DNA of 20,000 nucleotides from an uncultured virus (IMG/VR IMGVR_UViG_3300034759_000204) (lineage: Duplodnaviria > Heunggongvirae > Uroviricota > Caudoviricetes). The stretch lies in IMG/VR virus record IMGVR_UViG_3300034759_000204; one strand, 5' to 3'. The position numbers were made by a program, and so were the translations under genes. A model generated the notes under the pieces. That model worked only from the letters and a program-made list of their open reading frames with translations. It made no database searches and had not been told where the DNA came from. This document shows, in pieces, positions 3 to 19,934 of this stretch. Position 1 is the first letter of the stretch, and each line of letters begins with the position of its first letter.

Positions 3-2129
3 AAAAATTTAGTATCTGCTAATTTTGGCAGTTTTACTTGCCATTATGACGCAAGTACAATCTTAAATGACGAAGTTATAGAACAAATATATAACAAAAT
101 AGAAAACTATCTCCCAAACTAGGCTTGTTATATACAAGATTATTACAGACCTTGTGGTTGTGATAATGAATGTGACATACATACTTGTAGATGTGATGGT
201 AGATGTCATGGATATTCTAGCTGTGATTGTAATAGCAGACAGTATAACTTTACTTGTGACTGTTACCAAGTAGCTTATGGTGGTACATGCACATGTTATG
301 AATGGAGCTACGAAACATGTGAATGTTATTGGTAGCACTATGGCTATTGTGTGACAGATGGTTGTTATTGTAATGGGACATGTTATGAAGATAATATTTG
401 TTTTCCATATTATACATGTGTGTGTGATAACGTAGCTCATATAATCCCATGTTCATGTGACAACTAGTGCCATGGTTTTTCTGCATGTGATTGTGACTTT
501 ACATGTGATGGATATGATGCTTGTTCTTGCCATAATTCCTGTCATGGTTATTCGGCATGCAGTTGTGATGGCCCATGCGATATATATGGCTGTGGTTGCT
601 ATAATACCTGTCATGGCCATTCTACATGTAGTTGTAACAGCAGATGTTATGGTGGATATTCTACTTGTAGCTGTAATAATACTTGTGATGGCTATTCTAG
701 CTGCAGTTGTAATAACACTTGTTATGGTGGATATTCTGATTGTTATTGCAATTATGCAAAGTATGGATATGTTGGGTGTTCATGCAATAATACTTGCTAT
801 GGTGGATATTCTACTTGTAGTTGTAATAATACTTGTGACGGTTATTCTAGTTGTACATGTAATAACAGATGTTATTTATATTCATGTCCATGTGATGGAG
901 CCTGTAATTAGTATAGTAGTTGTTCCTGTAATGACAGATGTTATGAATATTAGTATAATTATTGTCAATGCTATAATACTTGTTATGGATTTAGTTCGTG
1001 TAGTTGCAATAATTCAAGTTATTCTAGCTGTTATTGTGATGATAGTTGTTATGGATATTCTTCCTGCGATTGCAATAGTACATGTTATGGATATGATGCT
1101 TGTTCTTGCCATAATACCTGCTATCCTTTTACCCCATGCGGTTGTGATAATTCATGTTACGGATTTGATGCTTGTTCTTGCCATAATACCTGTGATGGCT
1201 ATTCGGCATGTAGTTGTAACAACAAATGTGATGGATATGACGCTTGTTCTTGTCATAATGTCTGTTATGGTTATTCTATATGTAGCTGTAACAACACATG
1301 TGATGGATATAGTTGCGACTGTGATAACACATGCGATGGTTATTCTTCATGTAGTTGTAATAATACTTGCTATGGTGGATATTCTACTTGCAGTTGTAAT
1401 AACACTTGTGATGGTTTTATTGCATGTAGTTGCAATAGCATATGTGATGGATACGGTTCTTGTGTCCCTTATGGAGAAGTATGTTAGTGTAATGCACAAG
1501 AAGATGGTACTTGTACCTGTGAAAGTGCATACAGATATGCAACATGTACATGTTATTATGTCAAATATAACTATAATGAATTTTGTGAAACTTCATGTTA
1601 TTCATTTAATGTTTGTAGTTGTAATAATGCATGCTATGGAGAAACATGCTCATGTAATAATATTTGTCATGGATATGAAGCTTGCGATTGTTATGATAGA
1701 TGTTATGAATATGATTGTTCTTGTAACTACTAGACATATGGGTTTCAATGTTAGAATTGCTATTCTTCTAATTATAGTTGTTCTAGTTTTGAATATAATT
1801 GTTAGTGTGATATTACATGTGATAGTTATGATTATTGTCCAACACATAATACATGTTCTGCATTTAGCACATGTGACTGTTTTGCTACTTGTTATGATGA
1901 TACTTCAATTAATACATGTACTACATTTACACCATGCAATTGCGATATTTCATTGTATGATGGGTGTACAAAATACGGAATATGTTCGGCCAATGAAGGG
2001 GGCGTTTGCACAAGTCATGTTGAACCATAGGCATGTGATGGATATACATAGCCACAGCCTACTGAGGACACATCAGTTACATGTACATCAGATGGTACAA
2101 TTGATTGTACAAGTTATGTGCCACAGTAA
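3..2129 (+). CDS. 5'-truncated giant Cys-rich repeat protein (>700 aa, C-x-C-x-x-x-C-x-G-Y-x-x repeats); candidate radical SAM substrate
   Basis: Frame 3 has no TAA/TGA from the window edge to TAA at 2127-2129 and contains 11 in-frame TAG. It reads ...CSCNNTCYGGYSTCSCNNTCDGYSS... for dozens of 12-13 aa units and lies directly upstream of an rSAM/SPASM gene. Confidence 0.9.
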
Positions 2130-2237
2130 ACTATCATTTTGCTAAAGACTCAATGGTTTCCTTAAATGAATTTTAAATAAAACTGTTAAAACAAATTATA
2201 ATTTAAGTAGAAAATTATATAAAGGAGTTAATTTTTA

Positions 2238-3821
2238 ATGGATGATAAAAATCTTAAAACAGGTAAAAAAGGTAAAAGTTTAAAAGAATTAGGTTTAAAA
2301 ACAAGAAACTTGAGTTTAGATATGACTGAAGGTTGTAGTTTAAGATGTAAATATTGTTTTGCCGATTTTGCTGCTGAAAAAAGAGAAAATAGAAAGCTAA
2401 CAGAAGATGTTATGAAAGCTGCCATTGATTGGTTATTTGATGATGGGACATCTGGGACTACAGAAGAAGTTAACAAGGAAGGCGGATTAGGGTTCGAACC
2501 ATGGGGCGGTGAGCCATGGCACAATTTTCAAATGTTACAAAAAGCATATGAATATTTTGAAAAGAAATCTAAAGAAACTGGTAAAAAAATAGGGCATATA
2601 GGTGGAACAACAAATGCTGTAGAATTTACTGAAGAAAGATTAAAATGGTGTAAAGACCACAACATTACTTGGCTAATATCGTTAGACGGCATAAAAGAAA
2701 ATCACGATAAACAAAGAGTATATGCTGATGGTAGTGGAAGTTTTGATGTTGTTGATAAAAATGTTGATTTATACAAAAAAGTATATGGGTTTGCCCCGCA
2801 GTTAAGAATGTCTTTACATCCAGATTATATTGATAATATTTATAAAAGTTATGAGTATGTGTTAGGTAAAGGTGTAAAATCTTATTTCTTTTCCCCAGTC
2901 TTTGAAGCTAACTGGACTGAAGAAAGTTTTAAAGAATTAGAAGATCAAATAGTTAGGTTATATGAAAAATTAATATTAGATTATAAAAGTGGTTTCCCTA
3001 AAGTAGATAATAAATTTATAGACGATATGATTTATTATATATTAGGTGCACAAAGAAAAGGTATAAATTTAGATGAGATTGAAAAGACAGGATCATATGA
3101 TGTAAATTTAAATGGCCTATCAAAAGGTATGCATTTACCAAAACCATGTGGTGCTGGAACCTCATATTTTGGAGTTACTGTAGAAGGACAAATTTTTGTA
3201 TGCCATAGATTTAATAAACATGGATTGGATCCTAAAAAAATTGGCTTTGATAAAAGATATGGTTGGTTAGGTAATGTGTGGGAAGGTATACATAATGTAG
3301 ATTTAGTAAATGAACTTAAAAATTGGGATGTAAAAGATTTAGAACATTGTAAATATTGTAAGTTAAAGTATTACTGTAAAGGAAGTTGTTATGCTTCAAA
3401 TTACGATAATACTGGTAATATTAAAGGATATCATAAAAATGCTTGTAAAATTAATTTTGCTTTATATAACGCTGCTTTAAGAATAATTGATTTATTCAAA
3501 AAGAATAATATGTTTGATTATGAAAAAAATGATATTATTTTCCCACAACAAAATTTTGGTAATTCATTTCAAGGTAGAAATGGACAAAGTATTAATTCCT
3601 GTATGTGTAATAACGCAACTTATTATTTCAATGGATTAGAACAATTATTATCTGATGAAAAGCCTGAAAATGTAGAAGATCTTAAAATGCAAATACTAGA
3701 TGGCGGAATTAATGTGCTACTTGATATGTACCAAGAAGTTAAAATGAATAAGGGTAATAATAGACAGTTCAATAACCCTAAAAGTAATAACATAAAAAAG
3801 AAATTTAATTTCAAATTGTAA
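2238..3821 (+). CDS. Radical SAM/SPASM domain protein (peptide-maturase/anSME-like), 527 aa
   Basis: SD AAGGAG at ~2222. Motifs: CSLRCKYC (CxxxCxxC), WGGEP, TTN, ISLDG, SPASM PCGAG...G.IFVCHRF and CKYC-x5-CKGSC...C. No internal TAG. Confidence 0.95.
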   Translation: MDDKNLKTGKKGKSLKELGLKTRNLSLDMTEGCSLRCKYCFADFAAEKRENRKLTEDVMKAAIDWLFDDGTSGTTEEVNKEGGLGFEPWGGEPWHNFQMLQKAYEYFEKKSKETGKKIGHIGGTTNAVEFTEERLKWCKDHNITWLISLDGIKENHDKQRVYADGSGSFDVVDKNVDLYKKVYGFAPQLRMSLHPDYIDNIYKSYEYVLGKGVKSYFFSPVFEANWTEESFKELEDQIVRLYEKLILDYKSGFPKVDNKFIDDMIYYILGAQRKGINLDEIEKTGSYDVNLNGLSKGMHLPKPCGAGTSYFGVTVEGQIFVCHRFNKHGLDPKKIGFDKRYGWLGNVWEGIHNVDLVNELKNWDVKDLEHCKYCKLKYYCKGSCYASNYDNTGNIKGYHKNACKINFALYNAALRIIDLFKKNNMFDYEKNDIIFPQQNFGNSFQGRNGQSINSCMCNNATYYFNGLEQLLSDEKPENVEDLKMQILDGGINVLLDMYQEVKMNKGNNRQFNNPKSNNIKKKFNFKL

Positions 3822-3840
3822 AAAAGGAGGGAATTTAAAG

Positions 3841-4101
3841 ATGGCTTTATCAGCAGAATTAATTATTAATGATACAGATTATTCTGATAAAATAACAGAT
3901 ATAAATTTTATTGATAAGAGAACACAAACTGACTACCTGATCACTATGGAAAAATACTATATAACAGATCCATTACCTTCTAATTAGTCTATAACTCTTA
4001 AATTCAATGATATATTAATAATTGAAAACAGTACAAATATAGACTTTGAAATTAATACTAGAAATCTAGGAACGACTATAAGAATTAAAGTTGAAAAATG
4101 A
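3841..4101 (+). CDS. Small hypothetical protein (86 aa, one TAG read-through)
   Basis: SD AGGAGG upstream, ATG 3841, in-frame TAG 3985-3987, TGA 4099-4101. Starts MALSAELIINDTDYSDKITDI. Confidence 0.8.
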
Positions 4102-4142
4102 GGCAGGGCGATTGTCCTGCTTCATTATTATTATTTTTTTTT
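4099..4142 (+). terminator. Probable intrinsic terminator
   Basis: TGAGGCAGGGC-GATT-GTCCTGCTTCA hairpin followed by a T-rich tract. Confidence 0.65.
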
Positions 4143-4172
4143 AGTTAATTGTTACTGAGGTGATATAAAATC

Positions 4173-7100
4173 ATGCCTAGCTTAATTAATGAATATAATG
4201 CTATTTATACATTATATGATAATATATTCCCATTTTAGGGTTAGAAAAATTAGCAATTAATAGAGCCATAGACTACTAATTTAATAGGTAATGGAAATTT
4301 ATAGTTAGATTCTAATGCTGATAATATTTCTGATTTTTTTAATGCTTCTACTCTAACTTTTGTTAATATTAATGATATTTTTTCAAAAACATATAATGTA
4401 TTAAATTATTAGACACAAAAAGGTTTTTATATAAATATAACAAATAAAACTACTCAAACAACTTAGTATTCATAGCTTAAAATATATTCTAATAATATAA
4501 ATATTCAATAGAGTACTACTTATAACCTATCTTTACAAGGTAAATTAGATAATTCTGTTTTAATTGTGTTTTAGGAAATATATGATAGTACTAACACATT
4601 AATACAAAATCAACAACTTAATTTATCTGAAGTTCTTATAATGAGTGATAATACTAAAATATATTCAGGTTCTGTTATTTAGCCTTAGAATTCTTCATAT
4701 ATAAAATTTTCTTTTGAAATAAGAATACCACAAAAAAGTCAAGGGTCTTAGCTATTAAACAATGTACAATTAGAAAACAGAAATTATTGGACTTCATTTT
4801 AGAATCCAACAAATCCTTAGAATCTTATTATAACTGATATTGGTGAACATTTTTCCTTAACTAACACTGGTTATTTTTATATTCCTACATCTAAAAAACA
4901 AAATTATGAATAGAATTTAATTTCTATAGGAAAACCTTTTGAATAGAATAGTATAACTTTATATTTTGAAAATTCATATTAGACCCTTGCTGTTAAAATC
5001 ACTGATAATACTGGATAGATTGTTTTTGAACATCATAATATTAGTTATGATTAGCTATGGAATTATTTTTAGTTAGCTTACAGACAAAATGGTGTTGGTA
5101 TAGATTTAAAACTTTTTATCAACAACACAAAAGTATTTGAACAAAATATATAGGAAATAAATTTAGATTATAACAACACATAGTTTAAAAAAGTATATAT
5201 AGGCCATAGTTATTCTGAGAGTCAATAGATAAATCAACTAAATGGTTTTGTTTCTGTTATAAAAGGTGTTGGAAGTTATATATTAGATGACGAAATACTT
5301 AATATTTATAATAATAAAAAAATATATTCTTCAACAAGATCTTTAGTACGTAGTGCTGATATAAATGCAACATTACTTGGTGGGTTATCTCCAAGCGAAT
5401 TTGCAACGTCAACACATAGCCACGACGATAGATATAGAAATAAAGTAGAATCAGATAATACATATGTTTTTAAACATGGTGACACATTAACTGGTACATT
5501 AACCGCCCCTACACTTCAAATAAACGATGGGAATACCAAAATACTAGAGGGTGGTACAAATAGTGTAAGAATACAAACTAATTCTGGGTATGTTGATATT
5601 GGCCCTCAGAATACTTCCTTGTCACATTTTAATACCGACAGACCAAAATTCTATTTTGGCAAACCTGTTCAGATTAATGGTAATATAGAAAGTGATGGCG
5701 GTACTAGAACGATAACAGGGTTTAATCTATCTGGTAATGCATCTACATAGTCTAAACTAGAAACCGCTAGAACTATTAGCTTAACAGGTGATGTTACTGG
5801 TTCAACGACTTTCGATGGATCGTAGAATGTTTCTATAACCGCTACCGTTGCTAATGATTCACATACACACGATACTAGATATTATACTGAATCAGAAGCA
5901 GATAGTAGGTTCGTAAATGCCTCTGGTGATACTATTACTGGTACATTAGCATACAATGATGTTTCAAGATATTGGTTATCTACTGCTACCAACTATGGAA
6001 TTTATTGGGAAACTACTAACCACGAACTTGAATTTCATGGAGCTGGGGTAGATAAATTTCATGTTGATTTAGATGACGGGAACACTTGGATTGGCGGTAC
6101 TTTAAGCGTTTCTGGTGCAATAACTGGTTCACTTTCTGGTAATGCGTCTACATAGTCTAAGTTGCAAACAGCTAGAACTATTAGTTTAGCAGGTGATGTT
6201 ACTGGCTCAACGACTTTCGATGGATCGTAGAACGTTTCTATATCTGCTACTGTTGCAAACGATTCACATAGCCATAGCAATGCTACTATCACATCTGTCG
6301 ATTGGAGTAAACTTACTAATGTACCTGATCCAACAATTACTTTAAGCGGTGATATAACTGGTTAGTAGACTATGACAAATCTCGGGAGTATAACTATAAC
6401 TGCTACCGTTGCTAATGATTCACATACACACGATACTAGATATTATACTGAATCAGAAGCAGATAGTAGGTTCGTAAATGCCTCTGGCGATACTATTACT
6501 GGTACATTAACATACAATGATGTTTCAAGATATTGGTTATCTGCTGCTACCAACTATGGAATTTATTGGGATACTACTAACCACGAACTTGAATTTCATG
6601 GGGCAGGGGTAGATAAATTTCATGTTGATTTAGATAACGGGAACACTTGGATTGGCGGTACTTTAAGTGTTTCTGGTGCAATAACTGGTTCACTTTCTGG
6701 TAATGCGTCTACATAGTCTAAGTTGCAAACAGCTAGAACTATTAGCTTAGCAGGTGATGTTACTGGCTCAACGACTTTCGATGGATCGTAGAACGTTTCT
6801 ATATCTGCTACTGTTGCAAACGATTCACATAGCCATAGCAATGCTACTATCACATCTGTCGATTGGAGTAAACTTACTAATGTACCTGATCCAACAATTA
6901 CTTTAAGCGGTGATGTAACTGGCTAGTAGACTATGACAAACCTCGGAAGTATAACTATAACTGCTACCGTCGTTGACGACTCACATACACACGATACTAG
7001 ATATTATACTGAATCAGAAGCAGACAGCAGATTCGTTAATGTAGCAGGCGATACTGTTACAGGATAGCTTACTTTTAGTGGCAACACCTCTTTCAATAAT

Positions 7101-7697
7101 GTGATGAATATAAATTCAGAAATGAGAATTGAAAATTAGAATCCTTCTGTATATATATGGAATAATTAGGGTGGGGCTTAGAATTTATATTTTGGAGAAA
7201 ATACTAGTTCTGGATATGGATTACATTTATATTGGGATTCCTCATATACCACATACTTAAAATCAAGGCATTAGGGTGTTGATACTAATGTATTTCATAT
7301 TGATACAAGAAATTAGGATTTTGTATTAGACCAACCTTTAATTTCTACATATGGTGAAAATGGTGGGTTATATATAGGGACTAATGGAAGTAAGCCACAA
7401 ATAACAACAGTTAACGGGGAACAAATGGTTCTTAGATCAAATGAAATAAGATTTGCTGATAATATCTAGTGGGGATATGATTCATTTAGTGGGATTAAAT
7501 ATGATTCAGTTAACAAAAAGATGTACATTGGTGGGTCAAACAGTTCTCATTTTACTTCTAGTACTAATCCTCAAGATATAGATGTAGAATTTGATGGTGT
7601 AAATGATGTAAAAGTAAATGGTACTTTGACTATTCAAGGTTTTACTATACAATATAATTAGAGTGATGAATCTTTTGATTTCATATATTTAGGGTGA
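4173..7697 (+). CDS. Phage tail fibre / receptor-binding protein (~1174 aa, many TAG codons)
   Basis: SD GAGGTG, ATG 4173, no TAA/TGA until TGA 7695-7697. Fibre repeats GNAST*SKLQTARTISLAGDVTGSTTFDGS*NVSI, HxH motifs (DSHTHDTRYYTESE), GDTxTGxL and C-terminal IQYN*SDESFDFIYLG. Confidence 0.88.
5835..6956 (+). repeat. Near-identical 561-bp in-frame tandem duplication (5835-6395, 6396-6956; partial third copy to ~7065)
   Basis: The same sequence recurs at a 561-nt offset, mirrored by the duplicate antisense ORFs 6059-6292 and 6620-6853. Confidence 0.93.
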
Positions 7698-7702
7698 TAA
7701 TA

Positions 7703-10591
7703 GTGAGTTAGGTTGTTGGTAAACTTAAAAATAACTCTTTATATACAAAAAAAGAAATATCAGAAACACAGCCACCAGAATACGATAAACTTATTCTTTA
7801 TTTATCACTTCAAGGTTATTTATTAGATACTAAAAATTACCTTGAAGATGTTGGATTAGATAAATTTAATGCCTCTTCTGGTATTAATACTTATTGGATT
7901 AATATGACACAAGATGGTACTTTTTTAGGTAATCCTATTTATAGAGTTGAAAAAGGTAGTTCTGATGATGGATATTTTTATAGATACAATATTAGTGGTT
8001 TAGAAAAAATATAGGAAGCTGAAGAATATGTACTAACAGGTATATTCAAATCATCTAATTCTAACGAAACAATAGAAGCAATCGATCATCCATATTAGGG
8101 TGGAGGATCCCCATGGACATAGGGCAATCATATCCCGCCTTATGAATCATACGACGATAGATATTATTTAGGTGATGGTTGGTGGAGATATATTTATAGA
8201 TTTAAAATAGATAGAACACAAATAACTAATTAGGCTTATAAAAATAATTTATATTTTGGATTTCAATGGTATTGGTAGGACACTGGGCAATATGTTTGGG
8301 GTACATAGCCTTAGTTATATGTTGGAAATTCTAAAAAAATTTATCAAGGGCATAAATCTTCTTATTCATATGATAATCTAATTAGTTATAAAGATTAGTT
8401 AAGTTTTGAAGGACCTATAACTAATCAAATTTCTATATCCAATATGAATAATTATCCTATTGGTTATACAGGAAATGTATGTGGATTTAGTAATAATTTT
8501 GAAGAAAGGTTTGGTTAGGGTAATTGGAATACTAAAATAATAAAATAGGATAATTGTATTATACCTGAAATACGAAAAGCACAAAGAATAATAACAACTT
8601 AGAGTGGTTGGGGTGGATGGACTGCTGGCAATATCGGTAATACTTCTGGGGATATTACTTATGGTGTTTTAATACGTCTACATTATGGTGAAATACAATT
8701 TGGTGATTTAAATACTTCTAATAGATTGTATATTAACTCAAACTACTATGAACAAAAAGGAAAAAAATTAGGAGAGTGGATTTGGTAGTGTGGAACATTT
8801 TTAGGTTCTACTGGTGGTAGACATCTTTATTAGAATGGAATTACTAAAGCTGATATTTAGTAGGTTTAGATTTATAATACAAATCAACAATTAAGTTATG
8901 TAGATGGCAGTAAAGATTAGAGTTATCTTGATTTACCTGTTGATGTTTTTAACAAATTTAAAGATGAAATAACAGTAAGTTTTATATATGAACCTTTATC
9001 TAATTATTCATATGGAACATGGCCATAGATTTTTACATTAAATTGGTGGATTAGTGGGAATACAAATGATTGGTTTGGAATATATAGAGGTAATGGATGG
9101 AGTTCATAGGATTCTATTACTTTTAGTGTAGTAGATGGAACTAGATAGTATTCAAAAGGTACTTCTATGACAGGTATTAATTCTAGATTAAATCATAAAC
9201 TTTTTATATAGATGTCTTATAGTAAACTTAATAAAAATTTATAGATATTTGTTAGAGATATTAATACTAGTGAAGATTTGTTAAAAACAAATATTTCTTT
9301 ACAAACAGATTTTTCATTTGATAAAACATTCAGCTATTAGAAATTAGGTTATTTAAATCAAGGGTCAGATTAGCAAAATTAGAAAATTACTAATTTCAGT
9401 TTTTATCATAAAAGTTTTAATTAGGATAAATTATATACTTTAATACCAAGAGTATTTTAGATTGATAAAAATGGATTTCTAAAAACAAAAGAAATTCAAG
9501 AACCTCATGATTTATTAACAGAATATGGGCCAACATAGTTTGAAACTGGTTAGTTTGGTGGGATTTATGGGACGTATACTCAAACAAATATTAGTGTGTC
9601 TGTAGTACCAAGAAAATTTAAAACACCATATTCTTACTTTATTAAAAGAACTCCTAATATTACTGATACTGGTAGCACTTCACAAAACTGGGGTGGATTA
9701 AAATTATCATTCCCAGATGACAAACAATGGGAAGAAAATCAAACTTATAGAGTGAGTTTTTGGTATACTGGATATTCACAGCATACAATAGAAATTTATT
9801 TTGCTTATAATATTGGTTATACTACGATGGGAGTTGGATTAACCAAAATTTCTTTGCCTTCTATTACTAATTAGTTCGTTGACGAAGATGGGTGGAAATA
9901 TTATGAATAGGAGTTTACTATACCTAATGGATTTATATACCAAACTGGAAGCGATGGTAATATATACTACTGTATGAGAGAATTTAAAATAGGTTATAAT
10001 TATACTACTACTGATGAGTATGGAACTAGACTTTATGTTAATGATCTTAAAATAGAAAGAATTTCTAAAAACAATGAATATAAAAAAACTAGAGGAATAA
10101 AAAAGTATGGTGTTTATATAAAAGAATGGATAGAAAATAACAAATTTACTGATGTTTATATTGTAGGTACAGCTTTATAGTCTACATATCCAGAAAACAG
10201 AACTAATGGTAATAGAATTTTAAAAATAAATGGAACACAAATTTATAATACAACAGGAAGAGGTTTAAGATTAACAATCTTTGATTCTAATTTTACTGTT
10301 ATTAGTGATACCACTTATGATGTATATGGTGATGATGTGTAGAGAACAAATCTAGCTAATTAGTTAATTTAGATTGATAAACAAAAATATTGGTAGTTAA
10401 CTTCATATGATTAGGTTAATTCAAATATAGACTTGAACAATTAGATGTAGAGTTTAGGCTCTAAAATTTGGCCTTTATCTTATAGATCACCTTATTAGGC
10501 TGTTGGTAAAGGGCAGAAGATTATAAAAGAAGATGGATAGATGAATAACGTAAATTATGTTAGTAAATAGGTAATTAATATTAAAATTTAA
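7703..10591 (+). CDS. Large tail-associated protein (~962 aa) with beta-rich, carbohydrate-binding-like domains and a C-terminal ILEI/GG-lectin-like domain
   Basis: GTG 7703 just after the upstream stop, open through TAG to TAA 10589-10591. It subsumes track ORFs 9596-9874 and 9974-10180. C-terminus GRGLRLTIFD...TYDVYG...TSYD*V...RSPY*AVG resembles ILEI/PANDER domains. Confidence 0.8.
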
Positions 10592-10603
10592 TGAGGGATA
10601 AAT

Positions 10604-12121
10604 ATGGCTGATTTATCTAATGGGACAACAATAGGTGGATTTAGATAGTTACATGAGAATTTATAGAAACCAACATTATTTGACGATTTAACAGTTCCTA
10701 CACTTCAAATAAACGATGTTAATACCAAAATATTAGAAGGCACGTCCAATAGTATAAGAATACAAACTAATTCTGGGTATGTTGATATTGGCCCTCAGAA
10801 TACTTCCTTGTCACATTTTAATACCGACAGACCAAAATTCTATTTTAACCAACCTATTCAGATTAATGGGAATATAGAAAGTGATGGCGGTACTAGAACG
10901 ATAACAGGTTTTAATCTATCTGGTAATGCTTCTACATAGTCTAAGCTACAAACCGCTAGAACTATTAGCTTAGCAGGTGATGTTACTGGCTCAACGACTT
11001 TCGATGGATCGTAGAACGTTTCTATATCTGCTACAGTCGTTGATGACTCACATAGTCATAGCAATGCTACTATCACATCTGTCGATTGGAGTAAACTTAC
11101 TAATCTGCCTGATCCAACGATTACTTTAAGCGGTGATGTAACTGGTTAGTAGACTATGACAAACCTCGGAAGTATAACTATAACTTCTACCGTCGGCGAT
11201 GATTCACATAGTCATAGTAATTCCACAATTACATCTGTTGATTGGAGTAAACTTACCAATGTACCTGATCCAACAATTACTTTAAGTGGTGATGTAACTG
11301 GTTAGTAGACTATGACAAACCTCGGAAGTATAACTATATCTGCTACTGTTGCTAATGACTCACATACACACGATACTAGATATTATACAGAATCAGAAGC
11401 AGATAGTAGATTCGTTAATGTTACTGGAGATACTATGACTGGTAATCTTACAATATTAAAAAACAAACCATGGTTAACTTTAGATAGTTCTAGTTCTGGT
11501 GATAATTTAAACGAACAATAGGCTGGCATAAGTATAGGTGAAGCTGGAACTGGAGGTTAGTCATTACATTTAGTATATACTGGTGATGGCTATTAGTATA
11601 TAGGAATGGGTTCTACATCCCCTATTCCTTAGTATAAAGCTATGCGATTTCATTATACTAATAATAATGTACTTTTCTATGGCACTATAACAGCAACAAA
11701 AGTCTATGGTGCAGTCTACAACGACTATGCTGAATATAGAAGTTCTGATGAGCCTATAGATTTTGGTTATGTATAGATAGAAGATGAAAAAGGTAATGTA
11801 ATTAAATGTAATGAAGATAGAAGTAAAAAAGTATAGGGAGTGAGTACTGATACTTTAGGATTTTAGATTGGAAAACAAAAAGATACTGATACTCCTATTG
11901 CTGTTGCTGGTAGAGTTTTAGTTTATTAGATTGATAAACATAAACTTAGAATTGGTGATTAGGTGTGTTCTACTAAAGAAGGGAAAGTTAGAAAAATGAA
12001 ATGGTGGGAAAAGATATTTTTTCCAGAATAGATTGTTGGTTATGTTAGTGAATTTCCTGATTATGATATATGGGGTAGTGATAATATTAAAGTTAATGGT
12101 AGGATTTGGATTAGAATTTAA
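10604..12121 (+). CDS. Tail fibre protein (~505 aa) with a C-terminal intramolecular-chaperone/peptidase-G2-like domain
   Basis: SD GAGGG. N-terminus MADLSNGTTIGG recalls T4 gp36-like starts. Shares fibre repeats with 4173-7697. C-terminus VYGAVYNDYAEYR...DTLGF*IG...PIAVAGRVLV...GD*VCS...VNGRIWIRI, then TAA 12119-12121. Confidence 0.87.
11048..11360 (+). repeat. 156-bp (52 aa) tandem repeats SHSHSN.TITSVDWSKLTN.PDPTITLSGDVTG**TMTNLGSITI
   Basis: TCACAT unit starts at 11048, 11204 and 11360. The same module occurs inside the 561-bp repeat. Confidence 0.85.
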
Positions 12122-12205
12122 AAAAAATCTAATAACAGATAATAAAGAAAATTTCTGTGTTAATTATTTATTGAAAATATTTTATAACATAAAAAGGTGA
12201 TTATA

Positions 12206-13342
12206 TTGTTTGTACAACCATATATTAATTATAGAGATGGTGAAGGATTAAGATTAATTATAGGTTATAGTAAATGTGACCTTAATTGTAAAAATTGCCA
12301 TTTAACCAAAGATGAAAATGTTAGTTTTGAATATATTTTAAATCTTCTTGATAATATAAAAACAACAGGCTATTTGTAGAAAATGCCATTGTAGTTTTCA
12401 GAACAATTATCTTAGATGACTTATGATAAAACTGTTGGTTACAATAAATATGGATTTGTAAATAATGAAATAGAAGAAAATAAACTAGGGATCCCTATAA
12501 TTGGCATAACAATTGGAGGCGGTAATGCTTTATCAGACACAAATATAAATTACACAGAAAAGATTTTACAACATAAAAATGTTGACAATTAGATTATTTA
12601 TTTAGGATATACAAAGGAATATATAAAACAAAAACATTTAAATTTTTTAAATAAACATAAGAATAAAATAAAATATATAAAAATTGGCCCTTATATAGAT
12701 GAGCAAAAAAATTATGGAATATATTATGGTTCTTTAAATCAAAAAATATATGATATAGAATTAAACAATATTGAAGAACTATTACCATATAAAAATGTAT
12801 TAAAAATTGATAATTCTAAGAGAGAAGAAATTAAAAAATTTTTTGATAACAATAAATTTTATGATGACCTAATAGAATTAAATACGTTCTAGGGAGAATA
12901 CATTGGTTATAATTTCTAGTTACCTAATGAATTGTCAAATTCTGTTATTTTGTCTGAGACAAAAAAATATGTACTAGGAATAAATAATATTTTTGGTTTA
13001 TGGTTAATAAATAATTTAGAAACACCATTTTTAACTTTTGAAATAGGTAATTATACAAAAAGTCAGATATATGGTATGTATATTTAGATGCAAAAATATA
13101 ATAATGATTTTTAGATAGAAACATTTTTTAAACATATAAAAGATAAATAGGTAATAAAAAATGGATAGAAAATTCAAGTAGATACTATTTTTGATAATAA
13201 TTTAAGATTTAAAAGAAATTATAATGATTTATATCTATTAAAAAAACTGTTTATGAATAGTTTTTATGAAACAAATTATAATAACTACTTTTTGCAAAAT
13301 GAAAAAACTTCAAATATATTTTTTGAATCATTTTTGAGGTGA
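12206..13342 (+). CDS. NrdG-like radical SAM protein (anaerobic RNR activase fold) with a long C-terminal extension, ~378 aa
   Basis: SD AGGTGA then TTG 12206 (alternative GTG 12197). Motifs DGEGLR, CDLNCKNCH, GITIGGGN, IYLGY and YIKIGPYI...GSLNQKIYD match the NrdG layout. Open through TAG to TGA 13340-13342. Confidence 0.78.
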
Positions 13343-13347
13343 TATAA

Positions 13348-14040
13348 ATGGCAATTGCATTAGAATAGATAACAACATCATATTCTATAACTGGAGGAGA
13401 ATTAATTAGAGCAGAAATAAGGACATAGTTGAATAAAGCAAAAAACAATGCAGCTGATTATGGTTACCCTATCAGTGGTTTTGTAGATTCTGATATAATA
13501 TATGGGAATAGCCAATTTAGATTAATTTAGAATTCATATTAGACTATATCTTCTACTATGGGTTTTGGGAATGCTCCACCTTCCAGCTCATATTTTGATA
13601 CAAATGATACTATAGATGATGCATATGTGTCACCCTTAGTTTCTTCTATAAAGTATTATTCAACTTGCCGTTGTAATTATAACAACTATTATAAATATCA
13701 ATATTGTGTAGAAAAAGGGACATGCACATGTAATACTCGTTAGACTCGAAGTTGTTCATGTAATGTAAATTTTTTTTGTACTTGCCAAACTGTATATGCT
13801 ACAGATATTAGAGATTATAATTATTGTAGTGTTTGTAGTAGCAATTACGTTTCTTGTTCATGTAATAAATACTTTGGCTGTGTGGAACGTAGAACTTTGG
13901 ACGAAATACAAGGGTGTTAGTGTAATTCAGATAAAGATACAAAAACAAATTTATGTAGTACAAATTTACGGAACAGTAGTTGTTTAAATGGATGTACTTG
14001 TAATGCTGATGGGTGTAGATGTAACTCACAACTAGTTTAA
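13348..14040 (+). CDS. Second Cys-rich protein (230 aa): Cys-free N-terminal half and CxCN-rich C-terminal half; candidate rSAM substrate
   Basis: SD GAGGTG, ATG 13348, TAA 14038-14040. Contains CRCN, CTCN, CSCN, CTCQ, CSCN, C*CN, CTCN and CRCN motifs. Confidence 0.85.
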
Positions 14041-14054
14041 TAAAGGAGATTATT

Positions 14055-14564
14055 ATGTTTGAAGATTATATAAATTTATTGTTCAACAAAAAAATTGAAT
14101 ATAAAGATTTATTAATACCTGAAGAATTTATAGATAAATAGCAATTATTGTTTGATGAAATAATTAATTATTAGTTATATAATGATTTTGATGTTGAATA
14201 CAAAAAAAATCATCAGATTTAGAACATGAAACTAAAAGACGACATAATAGAATATATTTCACCTTTAGGTATTACAGTACAACTAGAAAAAAAGTTTGAT
14301 ACTTTAAAAAAAAATTAGGAATATTATAATTCAATTAGAGACGAAATGTAGAAAATAAAATGTACAAACTGTCAGTTACAATAGTATTGTCCATATGATA
14401 TACCTACTATAGATCAATGTGGATTTACTATAAAGTTTTAGGCATTATTATATAGAAATTTATTAGTTATATATGAAAATAAATACGTTAATAACAAAAA
14501 AGAACATATAAAACAAATAGATATTTGTAAAGATTTTAAGGCTGGTGTTATAAATGAGTTATAA
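14055..14564 (+). CDS. Hypothetical protein with a SPASM-like C-x2-C-x5-C motif (169 aa)
   Basis: SD AAGGAG, ATG 14055, TAA 14562-14564. Motif KCTNCQLQ*YCPY...QC. Overlaps the start of the next gene. Confidence 0.75.
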
Positions 14565-15786
14565 AGATTTCTTAAAAGATATATCAACAATCACTTTAAT
14601 TATGACTACTGATTGCAATTTGAGATGCAAATATTGTTTTACGCAAAACTATGGTTATAAACCAGAATATGTAGATTAGAAAGTATTTATAGATTTTATA
14701 AACGAATTATAGGAAATCAAAAATGGAGGTAGTATAGAAAATACGTTTTTTGGTGGTGAACCATTTTTACATTTAGATTAGATGAATGAAATTTAGGAAT
14801 ATTATTAGAAAAAAAATTTTGTTCATTCTAACACAAGAATATTATTTAGTGCTGTTACGAATGGCACTATTATAAATGATAAAATCGTAGACTTTATAAA
14901 TAAATATTTATATAACATACAATTTAGTATAGATGGTTCTATTAAAACTCAAGATAAATATAGAGTTACATAGAATGATAGAGGTTCTTATTATTTAATA
15001 CTAAATTAGATAAGTAAAAATTTAAAAAACATAAATACAAATATGTCTATTAAACAAACGTACTAGCCATATGGTTAGTTGAATATATTAGAAAATTATA
15101 AAGACTAGTATTAGAATTTCTTCCATCCTTTAAAGGATATAACTTTTACATCTATGATTATAAGAAGTGTCGATGTATTTGAACAAGAAGAACAAATATA
15201 GTACATAGACGAATATGCCAAAACATATGATTGGTGGTATGAAAATTTTGTTAAAAAAGGATTTTATAAAGAATAGACATTTTTTGGAGAATTTACTAGA
15301 AATGTGCAGGATATAAATGGTACTTTGAACAATTTCTTTACAACAGAAAATAAAACCCCATGTGGTTAGGGAAAATCACTTTTCGGCATTGATCAAAATG
15401 GTAATTTGTATCCATGCCATCATTTCTAGTATAGCGAACCTGGATATACTGACTTTAAACTTTTAACATACAAACAAAACGGTGATTTATCAAAAATAGA
15501 TTTAGAAAAATTGCAATAGTTTAATTCATATAATCTAACAAAAGGTCCCTGTAATCATTGTTAGGCTTCTTAGAATTGCTATTATTGTCTAGCTGAAAAC
15601 TATCAATACAGGAAAAATTTGAATATGCCTGATAAAAAACTATGTTTAGTTGGTAGAAGTGAAAACTCTATTCAACAAACTTATTATAAAAAAATTTTAT
15701 AGACAAATAATGATTTTATAGATTATATTAATTCATTTGAATATACAATACCTCAAAATAACATTGTTAATTATAGTATGATCTGA
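14554..15786 (+). CDS. Second radical SAM/SPASM protein (410 aa, 19 in-frame TAG)
   Basis: Motifs CNLRCKYC, FFGGEP, VTNGT, FSIDG, PCG*G...NGNLYPCHHF and CNHC-x5-CYYC. TGA 15784-15786. Confidence 0.92.
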
Positions 15787-15813
15787 ATTTTTTTAAAAAG
15801 AGGGTGTTATTAA

Positions 15814-16089
15814 ATGCAAAAAATTTATATAAATAATATAGATTTAACTTATAAATTAGAATCACTACAAATGGAGTATAATAGTTATACACAAACAACA
15901 ACATTTATTGTTATATAGAAAGATATGATTGTATTTAATGAAGTTCACAACGTGATAACTAATAATACAAATTTTATAGTAAAAGTTGTTGACGAAGAAA
16001 CAGGGAAATCAATAGAATATAGTATTAATGAATAGAGTGACAGAATAGATTTAATAACATCTAATAACACTATTATTTTAAAGGGGTAA
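15814..16089 (+). CDS. Small hypothetical protein (91 aa)
   Basis: SD GAGGGTG, ATG 15814, two TAG, TAA 16087-16089. Confidence 0.78.
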
Positions 16090-16095
16090 TTAAAA

Positions 16096-16356
16096 TTGAT
16101 AAAACTTATAGTTGATGGCAAACCTTTTGAATATGACTTTTATTCAATAGATGGCGTTGATAATAAAACTGTTTATACTTTTCACAAACACAGCATAAAT
16201 TTTGAAGATATTGTTAATATGAAGGTTAACAATGCTCAAATAATATATGATAATGTTGACCTTTTGGCTGGTAAAAAGTATACTATAAGAAAATAGATTG
16301 ATTATGATAAAAATACTAATTATAAAGTAATAAAAATTCAAATTGAAACTGAATAA
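16096..16356 (+). CDS. Small hypothetical protein (86 aa)
   Basis: TTG 16096 after AAGGGG. The track ORF extends through TAG 16294-16296 to TAA 16354-16356, abutting the next SD. Confidence 0.78.
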
Positions 16357-16373
16357 TAAGGAGGTAATAAAAT

Positions 16374-16748
16374 ATGGTAATTAAATTATATGATAACACA
16401 AATACTGAATTTGGCAGTATACAAGCAGAACCAGCTTATATAAAGTATAATTTGAAATATGATGAGGAAAAACAAAGTTTTTTTGGATATTTTGAATTAC
16501 TTAAAAGTGAATAGGATATGATAACTAACCTCAAACTTTTACAACATTCTACTAATCAAAATTTTTCTCATTTCACTGTTTCAAATGAAGATGGTACAGA
16601 ATTATATAGTATATCTATGTTATTTTAGAAAAATCAAGTTATTAATATTGATAATGGTGAACTTTATATTAGGATGGATATTGAAATTAATAATGAAAAC
16701 ATGGATACATATATTAATTTTTTAAACACAAATAACATAACTATATAA
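16374..16748 (+). CDS. Hypothetical protein (124 aa)
   Basis: Strong SD AAGGAGGT, ATG 16374, two TAG, TAA 16746-16748. Confidence 0.8.
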
Positions 16749-16761
16749 TATTTAAAAGTAC

Positions 16762-16788
16762 AGAGGGTCGGCATAATACCGACCCTCT
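16762..16788. terminator. GC-rich hairpin, probable terminator (T-tract on the minus strand)
   Basis: AGAGGGTCGG-CATAATA-CCGACCCTCT, a perfect 10-bp stem directly after the plus-strand gene run. Confidence 0.7.
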
Positions 16789-16850
16789 CTTGAGTTGTCA
16801 ATCTCGAAAATGACCTCGTTTCCATTCCTTATAGGTAGTTATCTGATATA

Positions 16851-16879
16851 ATTATACTATACAATTTTAAATTTGTCAA
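16851..16879 (-). promoter_or_regulatory. Consensus sigma70/sigmaA promoter TTGACA-17-TATAAT
   Basis: The plus strand has ATTATA at 16851-16856 and TGTCAA at 16874-16879 with a 17-nt spacer. Confidence 0.75.
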
Positions 16880-16901
16880 TATTTTTTAGGAGGTTTAAAT
16901 A

Positions 16902-17204
16902 TTGAAAATTGAAGGTGCACAAAAATTAGGTGGTAAAGTAGCTGTTATTTTATACTACGATAAAAAAGAAAAATTGTATTATTCATACATCTATTCGTTT
17001 GGTACTATGCTGTATGGGGATACATTAGAAGAATGTATTGAAGAAACTTTAGAAGTGTTGAAAGAATATAAAGAATTACTAGATAATGGGAAAATAAAAT
17101 TTAGTTCACTTAAAAAAAAAGAAAGTTTTTCAAAAACAATACAGTTATACTGGGGTTTGCTGAAAACCAAAATTATTTCTTTTTTTCTAACAAAAAACCA
17201 GTAA
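16902..17204 (+). CDS. HicB-like (UPF0150) antitoxin-domain protein, 100 aa
   Basis: SD AGGAGG, TTG start. YYDKKEKLYY...GTMLYGDTLEECIEETLEVLKEY matches the HicB N-terminal G(D/E)TxEE pattern. No TAG. Confidence 0.65.
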   Translation: MKIEGAQKLGGKVAVILYYDKKEKLYYSYIYSFGTMLYGDTLEECIEETLEVLKEYKELLDNGKIKFSSLKKKESFSKTIQLYWGLLKTKIISFFLTKNQ

Positions 17205-17334
17205 TTAGTCCTAAAATTTGTTCTTTTGTAAAATTTTTTTCTTCTATTTCTTTTAGAAATTCTAATTCTTTTTCTGTTAAAGTATAACCTTCTATTTCTA
17301 AAGTTTGTTTTATATATTTAAATTTATCAAACAT
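17173..17334 (-). CDS. Small VbhA/FicA-like antitoxin candidate (53 aa)
   Basis: SD AAGGA. MFDKFKYIKQTLEIEGYTLTEKELEFLKEIEEKNFTKEQIL... contains the (S/T)xx(I/L)EG inhibitory motif. Confidence 0.55.
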   Translation of the reverse strand: MFDKFKYIKQTLEIEGYTLTEKELEFLKEIEEKNFTKEQILGLITGFLLEKKK

Positions 17335-17349
17335 TCAATCAATCCTTTT

Positions 17350-17502
17350 TTATCTAATACTGTAATAATAATTTTCTTCCTCTTCAATTCTAAGATAAGG
17401 AAATCTTATATATTGTCCATCAATATTTATTTCTGCATATTTTCCTTCTTTAGTAAGTTGTAAAAAAGTTAGTAAAACTTCTTCTTTTTCTTTACTTACC
17501 AT
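17350..17502 (-). CDS. Small hypothetical protein (50 aa)
   Basis: SD GAAGGCGG. MVSKEKEEVLLTFLQLTKEGKYAEINIDGQYIRFPYLRIEEEENYYYSIR, TAA stop. Confidence 0.6.
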   Translation of the reverse strand: MVSKEKEEVLLTFLQLTKEGKYAEINIDGQYIRFPYLRIEEEENYYYSIR

Positions 17503-17608
17503 ATTTTCCGCCTTCTTTCAACGAATTTTATAAATAATAAAAAAGGCCAAGGCTCACAAAGAATACCCTGGCACTGACTACTAAAACTAAATTAACAGTA
17601 TTTTTTCA

Positions 17609-18004
17609 TTAAATTTCAATAGTAGTTCTCATCATGAAGTACCATCCTTGAAAAGTTTCTGGTTCATTCTTTTCAACATCTTTCCAAGAAATTGTTTCAA
17701 AAGTAGTTCTTTTTGTGTTTGCGTTTTTACCAATATATTTATCTTTATATATCTCTTCATCTTCTTCTTCATATTCATCATCATATTTTCTTTTAATTTG
17801 TGTATATTCGTCTTCAAACCAAAAAATAAATGATTCTTCAATCAAATTTTCTTCATTTTCAAAATAACAAAATTTTAATTTCACACCATTTATAAGTTTT
17901 TTGAAATAAACTTCATTACAATACATTCCAAAATTTGTTTGTCCTCTTTTAGGCATAACTTGATAATAATCTTTAACTATTTTTTTAAATTCTTCTTTTG
18001 TCAT
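17609..18004 (-). CDS. Hypothetical acidic phage protein (131 aa)
   Basis: SD AAGGAG, ATG 18004, TAA stop, natural amino-acid composition, no TAG. Confidence 0.8.
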   Translation of the reverse strand: MTKEEFKKIVKDYYQVMPKRGQTNFGMYCNEVYFKKLINGVKLKFCYFENEENLIEESFIFWFEDEYTQIKRKYDDEYEEEDEEIYKDKYIGKNANTKRTTFETISWKDVEKNEPETFQGWYFMMRTTIEI

Positions 18005-18127
18005 AATATATCTCCTTATTAAAATTATTTTTTTTGTTATTAGATATTTTAATTATACTATTCATATATAGGATAATTAAACTTTGTTAATTTGTATTTG
18101 AGAAAATAAAAAAGGAGGAACAAAAAA

Positions 18128-18442
18128 ATGAATGAAATTTTATTTTGGGTATTAGGTTTTGGAATTATTTTGTTGGTTGGATGGTTATTGTCAAAAGATA
18201 AGGTTAAAGATGTTCTTGATACAGTAAAAGAAGTTGCTGAAATAGTTGTTGGTGAAACTGAACAATTGTCTAATTTTAATGAAATGACTAGCGAACAGAA
18301 AAAGGAATATTAGATGAGTAGAGCTAAGATTATTTTAGAAAAATTAGGAAAATCTAACGCAATTTCAGATGAAATGCTTTCAAGTGCTATTGAATAGGCT
18401 GTGTTATAGATGAACCTTTTTCGTCCAAAAGAAAAAGATTGA
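18128..18442 (+). CDS. Phage holin, LL-H-like family (104 aa)
   Basis: SD AGGAGG and an N-terminal TM helix. VGETEQ...EQKKEY*...LEKLG...SAIE*AVL*MN matches the LL-H holin pattern. TGA 18440-18442. Confidence 0.82.
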
Positions 18443-18749
18443 AATATTAGAATTAACTGATGTTAAAGATTTATATAATGCTATTAAAAGCCAGAATGGT
18501 ATTAGTGTTTTAAATGTATTAGCTAATATGCTAAAAAATAAATTTGGTTTTAAAACAATAGTTATCAATAACACACTTTATTTTTAGAAAGGTAATTTTG
18601 AAATTCCTATGTCTGGTAGTAAATGGATTGAAAGTTGGAAAGATCAATATTTTAAAACAGAAATCAAAATTACTGAAGATCAACTAAAATAGAAATTAGA
18701 TGATAGTTTTAGAAATGGTACTTCTATTAGACTTGGAGATATTTTTTAA
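18438..18749 (+). CDS. Hypothetical protein, start uncertain
   Basis: Frame is open 18414-18749 (two TAG) and fills the gap to the next SD. There is no canonical start before ATG 18528. Confidence 0.55.
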
Positions 18750-18767
18750 AAAAGGAGTTGATAAATT

Positions 18768-19169
18768 TTGGATTTTATAACCGATAATTGGATTCAAATT
18801 TTAATCTCTTTAGCTTTGGCTGCTGTGTTTTTTATTCCTGTTAATAATGCAATTAATTACTTTATGTTTGAAGAACAACCCTCGGAAATTATATTTGAAA
18901 TTGATTAGCAAGTATAGGAAGGAAATATGGTTGTTTTGATAGAAAATTAGAATTAGGATGAAGTTGAAATGTTTTTTAATTCTGATATATTGAGTTTTGA
19001 AGATACTCAAGATGGTGTTGTTATAATTTTTAAAGATTCAAAAACACAATATTTGTTTAAAGATTTGACTTTTGAACAATTATTACCAATATTAAATATG
19101 AAAATATTAGATATTTATTATAATCAAACATCTAACACAACATTTTTATATTTAAAAGGAGTTGATTAA
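18768..19169 (+). CDS. Membrane-anchored hypothetical protein (133 aa)
   Basis: SD AAGGAG, TTG 18768, N-terminal hydrophobic segment WIQILISLALAAVFFIPV, four TAG. Includes track ORF 18969-19169. Confidence 0.75.
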
Positions 19170-19171
19170 TT

Positions 19172-19735
19172 TTGCCAAAATCAGTTAATTTAAAAAGTTT
19201 AAAACCTGGAGATATTTTATTATTTAAAACAGGAAATTAGCTTAATTAGCCATATAATTTTGTTAAAAAAGTTTATGGCTAGACTATGTAGAATTTTCTA
19301 ATTAATAACCTAAAAAATGACTATATACATGCTGAAATTTATTATGGAGATCTTTATGGGCTTGGAGCTACTTAGAGTGGTAGTAGATTTGGGAAATATA
19401 GTTTAGAGTTGCTTTCTAACTTAACTATTATGAGACTGAAAGATAAAGAAATAGATCAAGAATTAATGAGAGAATAGATAAATCAATTTCATAATTTAGA
19501 ATATGACTTTGATTCTTTAATTAGAAATAGTATATCTGAAATACTTAACATAGTTAAATTAGAAAAAGTTTTAGAAAATTTGTATGAAATTGAAACACCA
19601 AACTAGCTGATTTGTTCTGAACTTGTCTAGCGTGTGTATACTGAATATGGAGAACCATTGTTTGAAAGAGAAGATTGGGTTTCACCACAGGATTTATTTG
19701 AAAATCCCAAACTAGAAATTATATATACTGTTTAA
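19172..19735 (+). CDS. Permuted papain-like amidase (YiiX/YaeF, peptidase C92-like), 187 aa
   Basis: SD AAGGAG, TTG 19172. Motifs LKPGDILLF, HAEIYYG, YDF, ICSELV*RVY and VSPQDL. TAA 19733-19735. Confidence 0.85.
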
Positions 19736-19741
19736 TCTTTT

Positions 19742-19769
19742 AAAGAGCCTTAAAAGGCTCTTTTTTTTT
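19742..19769 (+). terminator. Intrinsic terminator
   Basis: AAAGAGCCT-TAAA-AGGCTCTTT followed by a T-run. Confidence 0.85.
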
Positions 19770-19825: not shown

Positions 19826-19902
19826 GGGGGCGTAGCTTAATAGGCGAGAGCAGTGGTCCCTAAAACCATTGGGTGTGGGTTCGAATCCCATCGCCTCCAC
19901 CA
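19826..19902 (+). tRNA. Amber-decoding tRNA, anticodon CUA, with alanine identity elements (tRNA-Ala(CUA))
   Basis: Cloverleaf: acceptor GGGGGCG/CGCCTCC (G3:U70), D-stem GCTT/GAGC, anticodon stem GTGGT/ACCAT with loop CC-CTA-AA (CTA 19860-19862), T-arm GTGGG-TTCGAAT-CCCAT, discriminator A and encoded CCA. Confidence 0.95.
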
Positions 19903-19905
19903 TTT

Positions 19906-19934
19906 AAACAGAGGATTAATCCTCTGTTTTTTTT
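19906..19934 (+). terminator. Intrinsic terminator after the tRNA
   Basis: AAACAGAGGA-TTAA-TCCTCTGTTT followed by a T-run. Confidence 0.85.

Follow-up and report, generated by a model that had tools for sequence, protein, structure and literature searches.

An uncultured tailed phage in which the amber codon UAG is probably read as alanine

Introduction

The record IMGVR_UViG_3300034759_000204 of IMG/VR describes an uncultured virus of the class Caudoviricetes, from which a stretch of 20 000 nucleotides (nt), hereafter the window, was analysed. Most genes on its plus strand are interrupted by the amber codon TAG, and the window encodes a tRNA with the matching anticodon CUA. Which amino acid, if any, is inserted at these codons? 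The first-pass annotation of the sequence proposed alanine. Four lines of evidence support this interpretation: the identity elements of the tRNA, the residues found in homologues at TAG positions, the exchange of TAG with the alanine codons GCN in ten related contigs, and profile scores. On this basis, UAG is very probably an ordinary sense codon for alanine in the tail, accessory and lysis block of this phage.

The literature and annotation software treat the recoding of stop codons in phages as either TAG to glutamine or TGA to tryptophan. These are the only two cases observed according to the preprint by Borges et al. (10.1101/2021.08.26.457843), and Cook et al. (PMC11210395) name only glutamine, tryptophan and, for Lak phages, an unknown residue. 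The proposal of a new phage code agrees with our literature searches, in which no phage or bacterium translating TAG (UAG) as alanine came up, although supplements of the recoding papers could hold such a report.

Gene structure of the window

When TAG is read through, the window contains 19 contiguous open reading frames (ORFs), 18 on the plus strand and one on the minus strand, covering 93.0% of its length. Under the standard bacterial code (NCBI table 11), the plus strand is reduced to fragments from position 3841 onward and only short ORFs remain; plus-strand ORFs of at least 60 amino acids (aa) together span 5952 nt (29.8% of the window), a figure that includes a wrong-frame ORF at 457–2145. 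We rejected the latter, TAG-free frame as an artefact of a repeat, its translation being low-complexity and hydrophobic.

There are 179 in-frame TAG among 6184 codons (2.89%), spread over 16 of the 19 ORFs, and no in-frame TAA or TGA in any of them. The ORFs end in TAA (14 of 19) or TGA (5 of 19), never in TAG. Inside the plus-strand genes, TAG occurs 179 times in frame and 160 and 162 times in the other two frames; TAA and TGA are found there only out of frame. The nucleotide 3' of TAG shows no bias (p = 0.23). The first-pass description of genes broken only by TAG, contiguous on read-through and closed by TAA or TGA is thus borne out. The ten codons that it named individually, nine TAG and the GCT at 3153, are all in frame, and a ribosome-binding site of the GGAG/GAGG type, which it had noted as a Shine–Dalgarno sequence, can be recognized by eye in front of roughly 14 of the 18 ORFs whose start can be seen.

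The content of the window is phage-like, with tail fibre families of the PHROG database, a holin scoring above the Pfam cut-off and a homologue of phage endolysins. The richest genes in TAG encode a tail fibre of 1174 aa (4173–7697, plus strand; 42 TAG, stop TGA; phrog_11011, long tail fiber distal subunit, E = 1.6e-84) and a tail-associated protein of 965 aa, here called orf965 (7694–10591, plus strand; 43 TAG, stop TAA; phrog_38688 and phrog_5911, tail protein).

The interruptions could in principle be untranslated, either as marks of decayed pseudogenes or as an artefact of assembly or sequencing. Nothing favours this explanation beyond the interruption of the genes under table 11. The frames are interrupted by a single one of the three stop codons, however, and once TAG is read through, the ORFs are closely packed and match their families from end to end. 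The pattern recurs, with TAG columns conserved, on ten independent contigs (see below), and a matching tRNA is encoded. We regard the chance that these codons are untranslated as virtually nil and hold with near certainty that TAG is a sense codon.

Three ORFs are free of TAG: rSAM1, a radical SAM/SPASM maturase-like protein of 527 codons (2238–3821, plus strand; stop TAA; PF04055, phrog_1802), an ORF of 100 aa (orf100; 16902–17204, plus strand) and the minus-strand ORF of 131 aa (orf131; 17609–18004). At the TAG rate of the other genes, the absence of TAG from rSAM1 has a probability of 4e-8. Unlike rSAM1, its neighbours are TAG-rich, as is its paralogue rSAM2 (410 aa; 14554–15786, plus strand; 19 TAG, stop TGA; phrog_1802). 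The three TAG-free ORFs may have been acquired recently, in the case of rSAM1 from a genome using the standard code, or they may be expressed before the tRNA is available, in which case rSAM1 would have to be produced without the suppressor tRNA.

The tRNA gene

A single tRNA was detected in the window by ARAGORN and Rfam, at 19826–19902 on the plus strand (RF00005, 65.5 bits). It has the anticodon CUA. The gene, 77 nt long, forms a separate small unit just downstream of the lysis genes and is flanked by two terminator-like hairpins with T runs, one 3' of the lysis genes (19742–19763, plus strand) and the other directly 3' of the tRNA (19906–19929, plus strand). Its cloverleaf is intact, with a variable loop of 5 nt. 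All seven pairs of the acceptor stem are formed, with 5' GGGG opposite CUCC (G1-C72, G2-C71, G3.U70, G4-C69), followed by A73 and an encoded CCA.

In bacteria, alanine identity consists of A73, G2-C71, G3.U70, G4-C69 and G20, with no element in the anticodon, and G1-C72, G2-C71, G3.U70 and A73 are common to all known prokaryotic tRNA-Ala, according to a review (PMC9976931). The tRNA of the window has G1-C72, G2-C71, G3.U70, G4-C69 and A73; it carries the full bacterial alanine identity set at its acceptor end. As a control, we examined the 30 tRNAs called by ARAGORN in the cluster of a cultured Aeromonas phage (OP820700). Besides a CUA tRNA of its own, this cluster has 29 tRNAs, among which G3.U70 is restricted to tRNA-Ala(UGC) and a single tRNA-Trp, the latter with G73.

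The alternative with a precedent is glutamine. Under NCBI table 15, as in crAss-like, Lak and other recoded phages, the CUA anticodon would cause the tRNA to be charged with glutamine by the glutaminyl-tRNA synthetase of the host or by the glutamate/amidotransferase route. No meaning of TAG other than glutamine has been published for phages (Borges et al. preprint; Peters et al., PMC9523058). The body of the tRNA, with G1-C72, G3.U70 and A73, is not of the glutamine type: in the control cluster, tRNA-Gln carries U1, A3-U70 and G73.

The tRNA of the window has no match in Escherichia coli genomes. A search of a viral contig collection returned one match to the anticodon arm; that locus has neither a tRNA nor any similarity to the window, and we attribute the match to chance.

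TAG columns in distant homologues

The residues facing TAG in distant homologues were tabulated for three proteins, namely rSAM2, orf965 and a second fibre protein of 505 aa (10604–12121, plus strand; 18 TAG, stop TAA; PF13884 in several homologues). The queries, with TAG masked as X, were aligned by blastp to 370 homologues; the set collected for orf965 numbered 135. Five close relatives had been removed from the three sets because the Q that they show at TAG positions stems from automatic translation with table 15. The three proteins hold 80 TAG; the 67 columns with at least eight aligned homologues were used and 13 were dropped. This Codetta-like analysis was controlled by masking sense codons in the same manner, which recovered the correct residue for 33 of 35 codons (TCT was misread as Thr and CTT as Tyr).

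Alanine is the best reading over the 67 columns (+12.1 nats), followed by Val (−23.4), Thr (−25.8), Ser (−32.6) and Gln (−35.8); its lead is 35 nats over valine and 48 nats over glutamine. It is also the plurality residue in the largest number of columns (Ala 18, Ser 8, Val 7). Most of the informative columns, and most of the alanine signal, come from orf965, for example at positions 935 (A in 56 of 72 homologues), 890 (56 of 96) and 380 (9 of 11). Position 907 of the same protein (SYD*, where * is TAG; nucleotide 10412), listed in the first-pass annotation as normally alanine, is A in 79 of 93. A few columns are rich in glutamine, such as position 392 of orf965 (Q in 9 of 12), and columns with the true glutamine codon CAA are also weakly conserved. 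These two points favour glutamine, which nevertheless scores far below alanine over the whole set.

The other positions for which the first-pass annotation expected alanine behave unevenly. Alanine prevails at NAST*SKL in the 1174 aa fibre (5748; A in 61 of 82 homologues) and at GF*IG in the second fibre protein, which was then named a chaperone (11864; 45 of 78). FDGS*N (5823; G 25, A 19, S 17 of 86) and GD*VCS (11960; P 20, C 20, A 18 of 77) are in frame as described, but their columns are mixed. The internal control between paralogues is reproduced: PCG-TAG-G in rSAM2 aligns with PCG-GCT-G in rSAM1, and RVT-TAG-ND with RVYADG. For the first of these (15367), which we count with the alanine-dominated positions, the paralogue has GCT, and the column among homologues is C 63, A 31 and S 18 of 117.

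The cysteine-peptidase-like putative endolysin of 187 aa (19172–19735, plus strand; 8 TAG) has only one close relative in the protein databases, in place of which we used three homologues from Marinitoga/Oceanotoga phages with the standard code, found by tblastn. Alanine is the plurality residue in three of six TAG columns. The TAG before LICSE corresponds to A, E, A in the three homologues and another to A, T, A; CSELV* (19628), a further position expected to be alanine, gives A, G, A. The remaining three columns are D/A/D, L/D/L and Q/E/Q.

In GenBank phages, tblastn with orf965 found only a match of 14% coverage, in Bacillus phage Basilisk, and tblastn with the holin against phages found none; orf965 has no relative in the viral contig collection.

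TAG positions in related contigs

Searching metagenome contigs with the alignment of orf965, we identified ten related loci, with 53–87% identity, which fall into four clades. The orf965 orthologues on these contigs are all TAG-rich (for example, 39 TAG in 971 codons on L009 and 45 in 962 on L012), and those of full length end in TGA. The contigs are short and none of them carries a tRNA. In the codon alignment of the family, 101 columns contain at least one TAG, and 14 of these consist of TAG only.

Pairs were counted between representatives of the four clades. TAG is most often paired with TAG (214 pairs), then with Ser (52), Ala (35), Thr (16), Gly (16), Leu (13) and Gln (12). When background frequencies are taken into account, the enrichment is 8.0-fold for Ala, 2.9-fold for Ser and just 1.6-fold for Gln. 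Reciprocally, the partners of GCN alanine codons are GCN (46 pairs), TAG (35) and Ser (19). The conservation of GCN alanine is 27% if TAG is counted as foreign and 47% if TAG is counted as alanine; the values for Ser, Thr and Gln lie between 46% and 53%. An empirical likelihood built from the clade pairs places alanine first, with serine 80 nats and glutamine 169 nats below. Controls that left out one codon at a time gave the correct residue in 37 of 39 cases, and GCT and GCA both gave the order obtained for TAG, alanine first and serine second. The ranking of alanine first in the family is clear.

Could TAG specify another small residue, chiefly serine, or else threonine or valine? By raw counts, serine accompanies TAG in the family more often than any other residue does (35 columns in the codon alignment; 52 pairs between clade representatives), it comes second in every family likelihood ranking, and its codon TCG is one mutation from TAG; valine is second in the distant-homologue test, and threonine ties with alanine in the rSAM2 profile described below. 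True serine codons, on the other hand, align with Ser, then with Thr and Asn, and not with Ala, and serine falls 45 nats below alanine in the distant homologues, in addition to its deficit in the family. The tRNA also speaks against serine: it carries G3.U70, and its variable loop lacks the length of the arm typical of tRNA-Ser in bacteria (in the control cluster, the three serine tRNAs measure 85–91 nt). A small residue other than alanine is therefore improbable.

Six full-length relatives in the databases (P0001–P0003, P0121, P0241 and P0376) offer a total of 123 aligned TAG positions, of which 110 are occupied by Q. This agreement with glutamine was produced by automated pipelines.

Profile scores and codon usage

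Four proteins were scored against PHROG profiles with TAG set to each of 11 residues. Alanine scores highest for orf965 (phrog_38688; Ala 81.2, Thr 77.0 bits), for the holin (phrog_608; Ala 49.7, Ser 46.6, Gln 42.8 bits) and for the endolysin-like protein (phrog_1128; Ala 62.0, Lys 60.2 bits). The sums over the four proteins are 318.0 bits for Ala, 302.3 for Thr, 302.2 for Ser, 297.2 for Lys and 295.9 for Gln, so that glutamine lies 22 bits lower than alanine. The two TAG positions of the holin that were expected to be alanine (18311 and 18395) are covered through this whole-protein score only. The holin itself (104 aa; 18128–18442, plus strand; 3 TAG, stop TGA) matches PF09682 with 32.4 bits (cut-off 24.9).

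GCN codons make up 2.44% of the codons of the window and CAA plus CAG 2.5%, compared with 2.89% for TAG. Read as alanine, TAG would bring this residue to 5.3% and would represent 179 of 330 alanine codons (54%), with GCN contributing the other 151. Read as glutamine, it would give 5.4% Gln and only 2.4% Ala. TAG-rich genes are poor in GCN: rSAM2 has 4.6% TAG and 1.0% GCN, and orf965 4.5% and 1.1%, compared with 3.4% GCN in the TAG-free rSAM1. With the tRNA body, both alignment tests and the profiles against it, glutamine appears highly improbable as the meaning of TAG.

Assignment of the codon

TAG lies in frame and is conserved across the phage family, a tRNA(CUA) with alanine identity elements is present, and the TAG positions are alanine-like. 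We propose that the host alanyl-tRNA synthetase (AlaRS) would load the phage tRNA(CUA) with alanine, as it should since AlaRS ignores the anticodon. The charged tRNA would then insert alanine at every UAG, and genes would terminate at UAA or UGA. This scheme supposes that decoding is efficient and that the host release factor 1 (RF1) is in some way avoided or out-competed. In an AT-rich genome, TAG would have become the majority alanine codon, and the code would be common to a family of related phages. It is likely that this family, which comprises at least four clades with protein identities as low as 52% and a GC content of 30–41%, has used UAG as alanine for a long time, here more often than GCN. 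Since the anticodon plays no part in recognition by AlaRS, alanine would be an easy target of codon capture.

Several observations weigh against the assignment to alanine. The amino acid at TAG is deduced from sequence comparison and from tRNA identity elements. The anticodon loop CCCUAAA (19858–19864) has the regular 7 nt, but its position 33 is C, where a functional elongator tRNA would have the U that is nearly universal in tRNAs. The minor element G20 is not clear either: the D loop is one base longer than usual, with C at position 20 and then G. In the column test, the fit to alanine per column is 0.18 nats at TAG versus 1.24 for GCT columns; the alanines encoded by TAG would therefore lie mostly at weakly constrained positions. 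With rSAM2 and the 505 aa fibre protein alone (34 columns), alanine is ahead of valine by just 3.3 nats. Several TAG of rSAM2 even face positions at which SCIFF-type maturases conserve another amino acid (W in 105 of 117, F in 103 of 116 and V in 110 of 111; further columns have R in 90 of 117 and K in 79 of 104), and its profile scores are a tie (Glu 125.5, Thr 125.2, Ala 125.1 bits).

Within the family, the likelihood margins are inflated because the pairs of relatives share ancestry and are not phylogenetically independent. Counted once per column, TAG occurs more often with Ser (35) than with Ala (26), and alanine leads only after correction for the 2% background; the excess is explained by serine being four times commoner and one mutation from TAG. 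In the six database relatives, the 13 of 123 TAG positions that have changed became D, K, E and N (two each) and R, P, A, L and S (one each), with alanine thus found once. Judged from these alignments, substitutions in such close relatives are uninformative on the residue. Lastly, nothing in the window accounts for the exclusion of RF1 from 40 or more UAG per gene.

The points about C33 and RF1 bear on a further explanation, in which UAG would be decoded in a mixed or conditional manner, being partly terminated or read by more than one tRNA, and its main role would be to time the expression of late genes. The tRNA may be weakened by its C33, and the host RF1 may still act on UAG. The three TAG-free ORFs recall the early/late mosaics of recoded phages described in the Borges et al. 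preprint. Yet genes with 42 and 43 TAG can give full-length products only if nearly every UAG is read. TAG is conserved between clades to about the same extent as sense residues (214 of 434 pairs, compared with 358 of 704 for Ser and 338 of 632 for Thr), and the codon is followed by no biased context. We thus see only a slim chance of mixed decoding and retain alanine as the ordinary meaning of UAG.

Comparison with known systems

The phage resembles the TAG-recoded phages of table 15 (crAss-like, Lak and other gut clades) in several respects: its structural and lysis genes contain TAG in frame, termination uses the other stop codons, it has a tRNA(CUA) of its own and would rely on a host synthetase, and some of its genes lack the recoded codon. 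Recoded phages concentrate this codon in late genes and keep early genes in the standard code; the window, in which three of 19 ORFs are TAG-free, covers the tail, accessory and lysis block and not the replication and early region. It would differ from the table 15 phages in the amino acid, alanine and not glutamine, and it differs in the alanine acceptor stem of its tRNA and in the majority share that TAG would have among the codons for its amino acid.

Alanine-inserting amber suppression is familiar from the laboratory: the classical set of E. coli amber suppressors includes a tRNA-Ala(CUA). The proposed mechanism is that of engineered alanine suppressors (PMC11662663), in which AlaRS uses G3.U70 and ignores the anticodon, and a CUA anticodon on an alanine tRNA body yields alanine at UAG. 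Unlike laboratory suppressors, the tRNA described here is a natural phage gene, which would be needed at 179 positions in this window alone.

Codons have been captured by alanine tRNAs elsewhere. In Pachysolen, CUG is read as alanine (NCBI table 26) by an alanine tRNA with a changed anticodon, and TAG is reportedly alanine in some green-algal mitochondria, as the first-pass annotation noted. Such captures are possible since AlaRS ignores the anticodon. These cases are eukaryotic, nuclear or organellar, whereas here a virus would use a code that must differ from that of its host.

The best DNA match to the tRNA of the window in a collection of phages is a tRNA(CUA) of T5-like Aeromonas phages (76.6% identity, 7 records), located at 69783–69857 in OP820700 (L002 4001–4075), about 200 bp upstream of tRNA-Ala(UGC). 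It shares the 5' GGGG, G3.U70 and A73 with the tRNA of the window and has U33 in place of C33. These elements suggest an amber suppressor of the alanine type, and the phages that carry it can be grown. It is annotated as tRNA-Pyl in OP820700 and as tRNA-TERM in MK318083; in the Aeromonas phage records generally, it is labelled tRNA-Pyl, tRNA-TERM or tRNA-OTHER or is left unannotated, and the genes are annotated under the standard code.

If the assignment to alanine is correct, the recoding of phages extends beyond amino acids whose synthetases happen to tolerate a new anticodon, to a code that would exploit the one synthetase that ignores it. The phage would provide a natural alanine amber suppressor and an example of a stop codon turned majority amino acid codon under AT pressure. 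The database relatives would be wrong at about 3–4.5% of their residues, to the detriment of structure prediction, family models and proteomic searches. Phages with a stop-to-alanine code may be common and currently hidden because pipelines translate them with code 15, placing Gln at 3–4.5% of positions. The cultured Aeromonas phages with an alanine-type CUA tRNA may offer a laboratory handle.

Other features of the window

All genes described in this section are on the plus strand unless stated otherwise. The window opens with a Cys-rich repeat protein, cut at its 5' end by the window border (3–2129; at least 708 aa, 11 in-frame TAG, stop TAA). It is built from short repeats that are rich in Cys and also include Asn, Asp, Thr and Tyr, and it resembles the Cys-rich C-terminal half of a protein of 230 aa (13348–14040; 6 TAG). 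Each of the two lies beside a radical SAM/SPASM enzyme, the first next to rSAM1 and the second close to rSAM2, and both pairs sit among the tail fibre genes. The best NCBIfam match of rSAM1 (200 bits) and rSAM2 (163.5 bits) is the ranthipeptide (thioether) maturase PapB, for which the cut-off is 340. The Cys-rich proteins, which have no match in Pfam, PHROGs or NCBIfam, may include a phage protein cross-linked by thioether bonds. In a collection of genome contigs, rSAM1 found only a 32% match, in a metagenome-assembled genome of Clostridiales, which gives no clue to the host.

Between the second fibre protein and the 230 aa protein lies an ORF of 381 aa resembling NrdG-like radical SAM activases (12197–13342; 10 TAG, stop TGA; PF13353, phrog_626); its score against TIGR02491, 36 bits, is under the family cut-off. 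The remaining ORFs are an ORF of 86 aa (3841–4101; 1 TAG, stop TGA), one of 169 aa (14055–14564; 7 TAG) and five small ones at 15814–16089 (2 TAG), 16096–16356 (1 TAG), 16374–16748 (2 TAG), 18528–18749 (2 TAG) and 18768–19169 (4 TAG).

The only phage relatives of the endolysin-like ORF in GenBank are those of four Marinitoga/Oceanotoga (Thermotogota) viruses, with 30–33% identity; a Marinitoga phage homologue is annotated as 'Cysteine peptidase, putative endolysin'. These relatives give a weak hint to the host or habitat of the phage.

The region 16755–16879 contains, on the minus strand, a perfect sigma-70-type promoter (16879–16851; TTGACA, 17 nt, TATAAT) facing a strong hairpin with a weak T run (16788–16762). 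The predicted transcript, of about 60–90 nt, would lie between two plus-strand genes. With a fold z-score of −2.9, the feature matches no Rfam family at E < 0.6. It may encode a small RNA or correspond to a bidirectional terminator with a divergent promoter.

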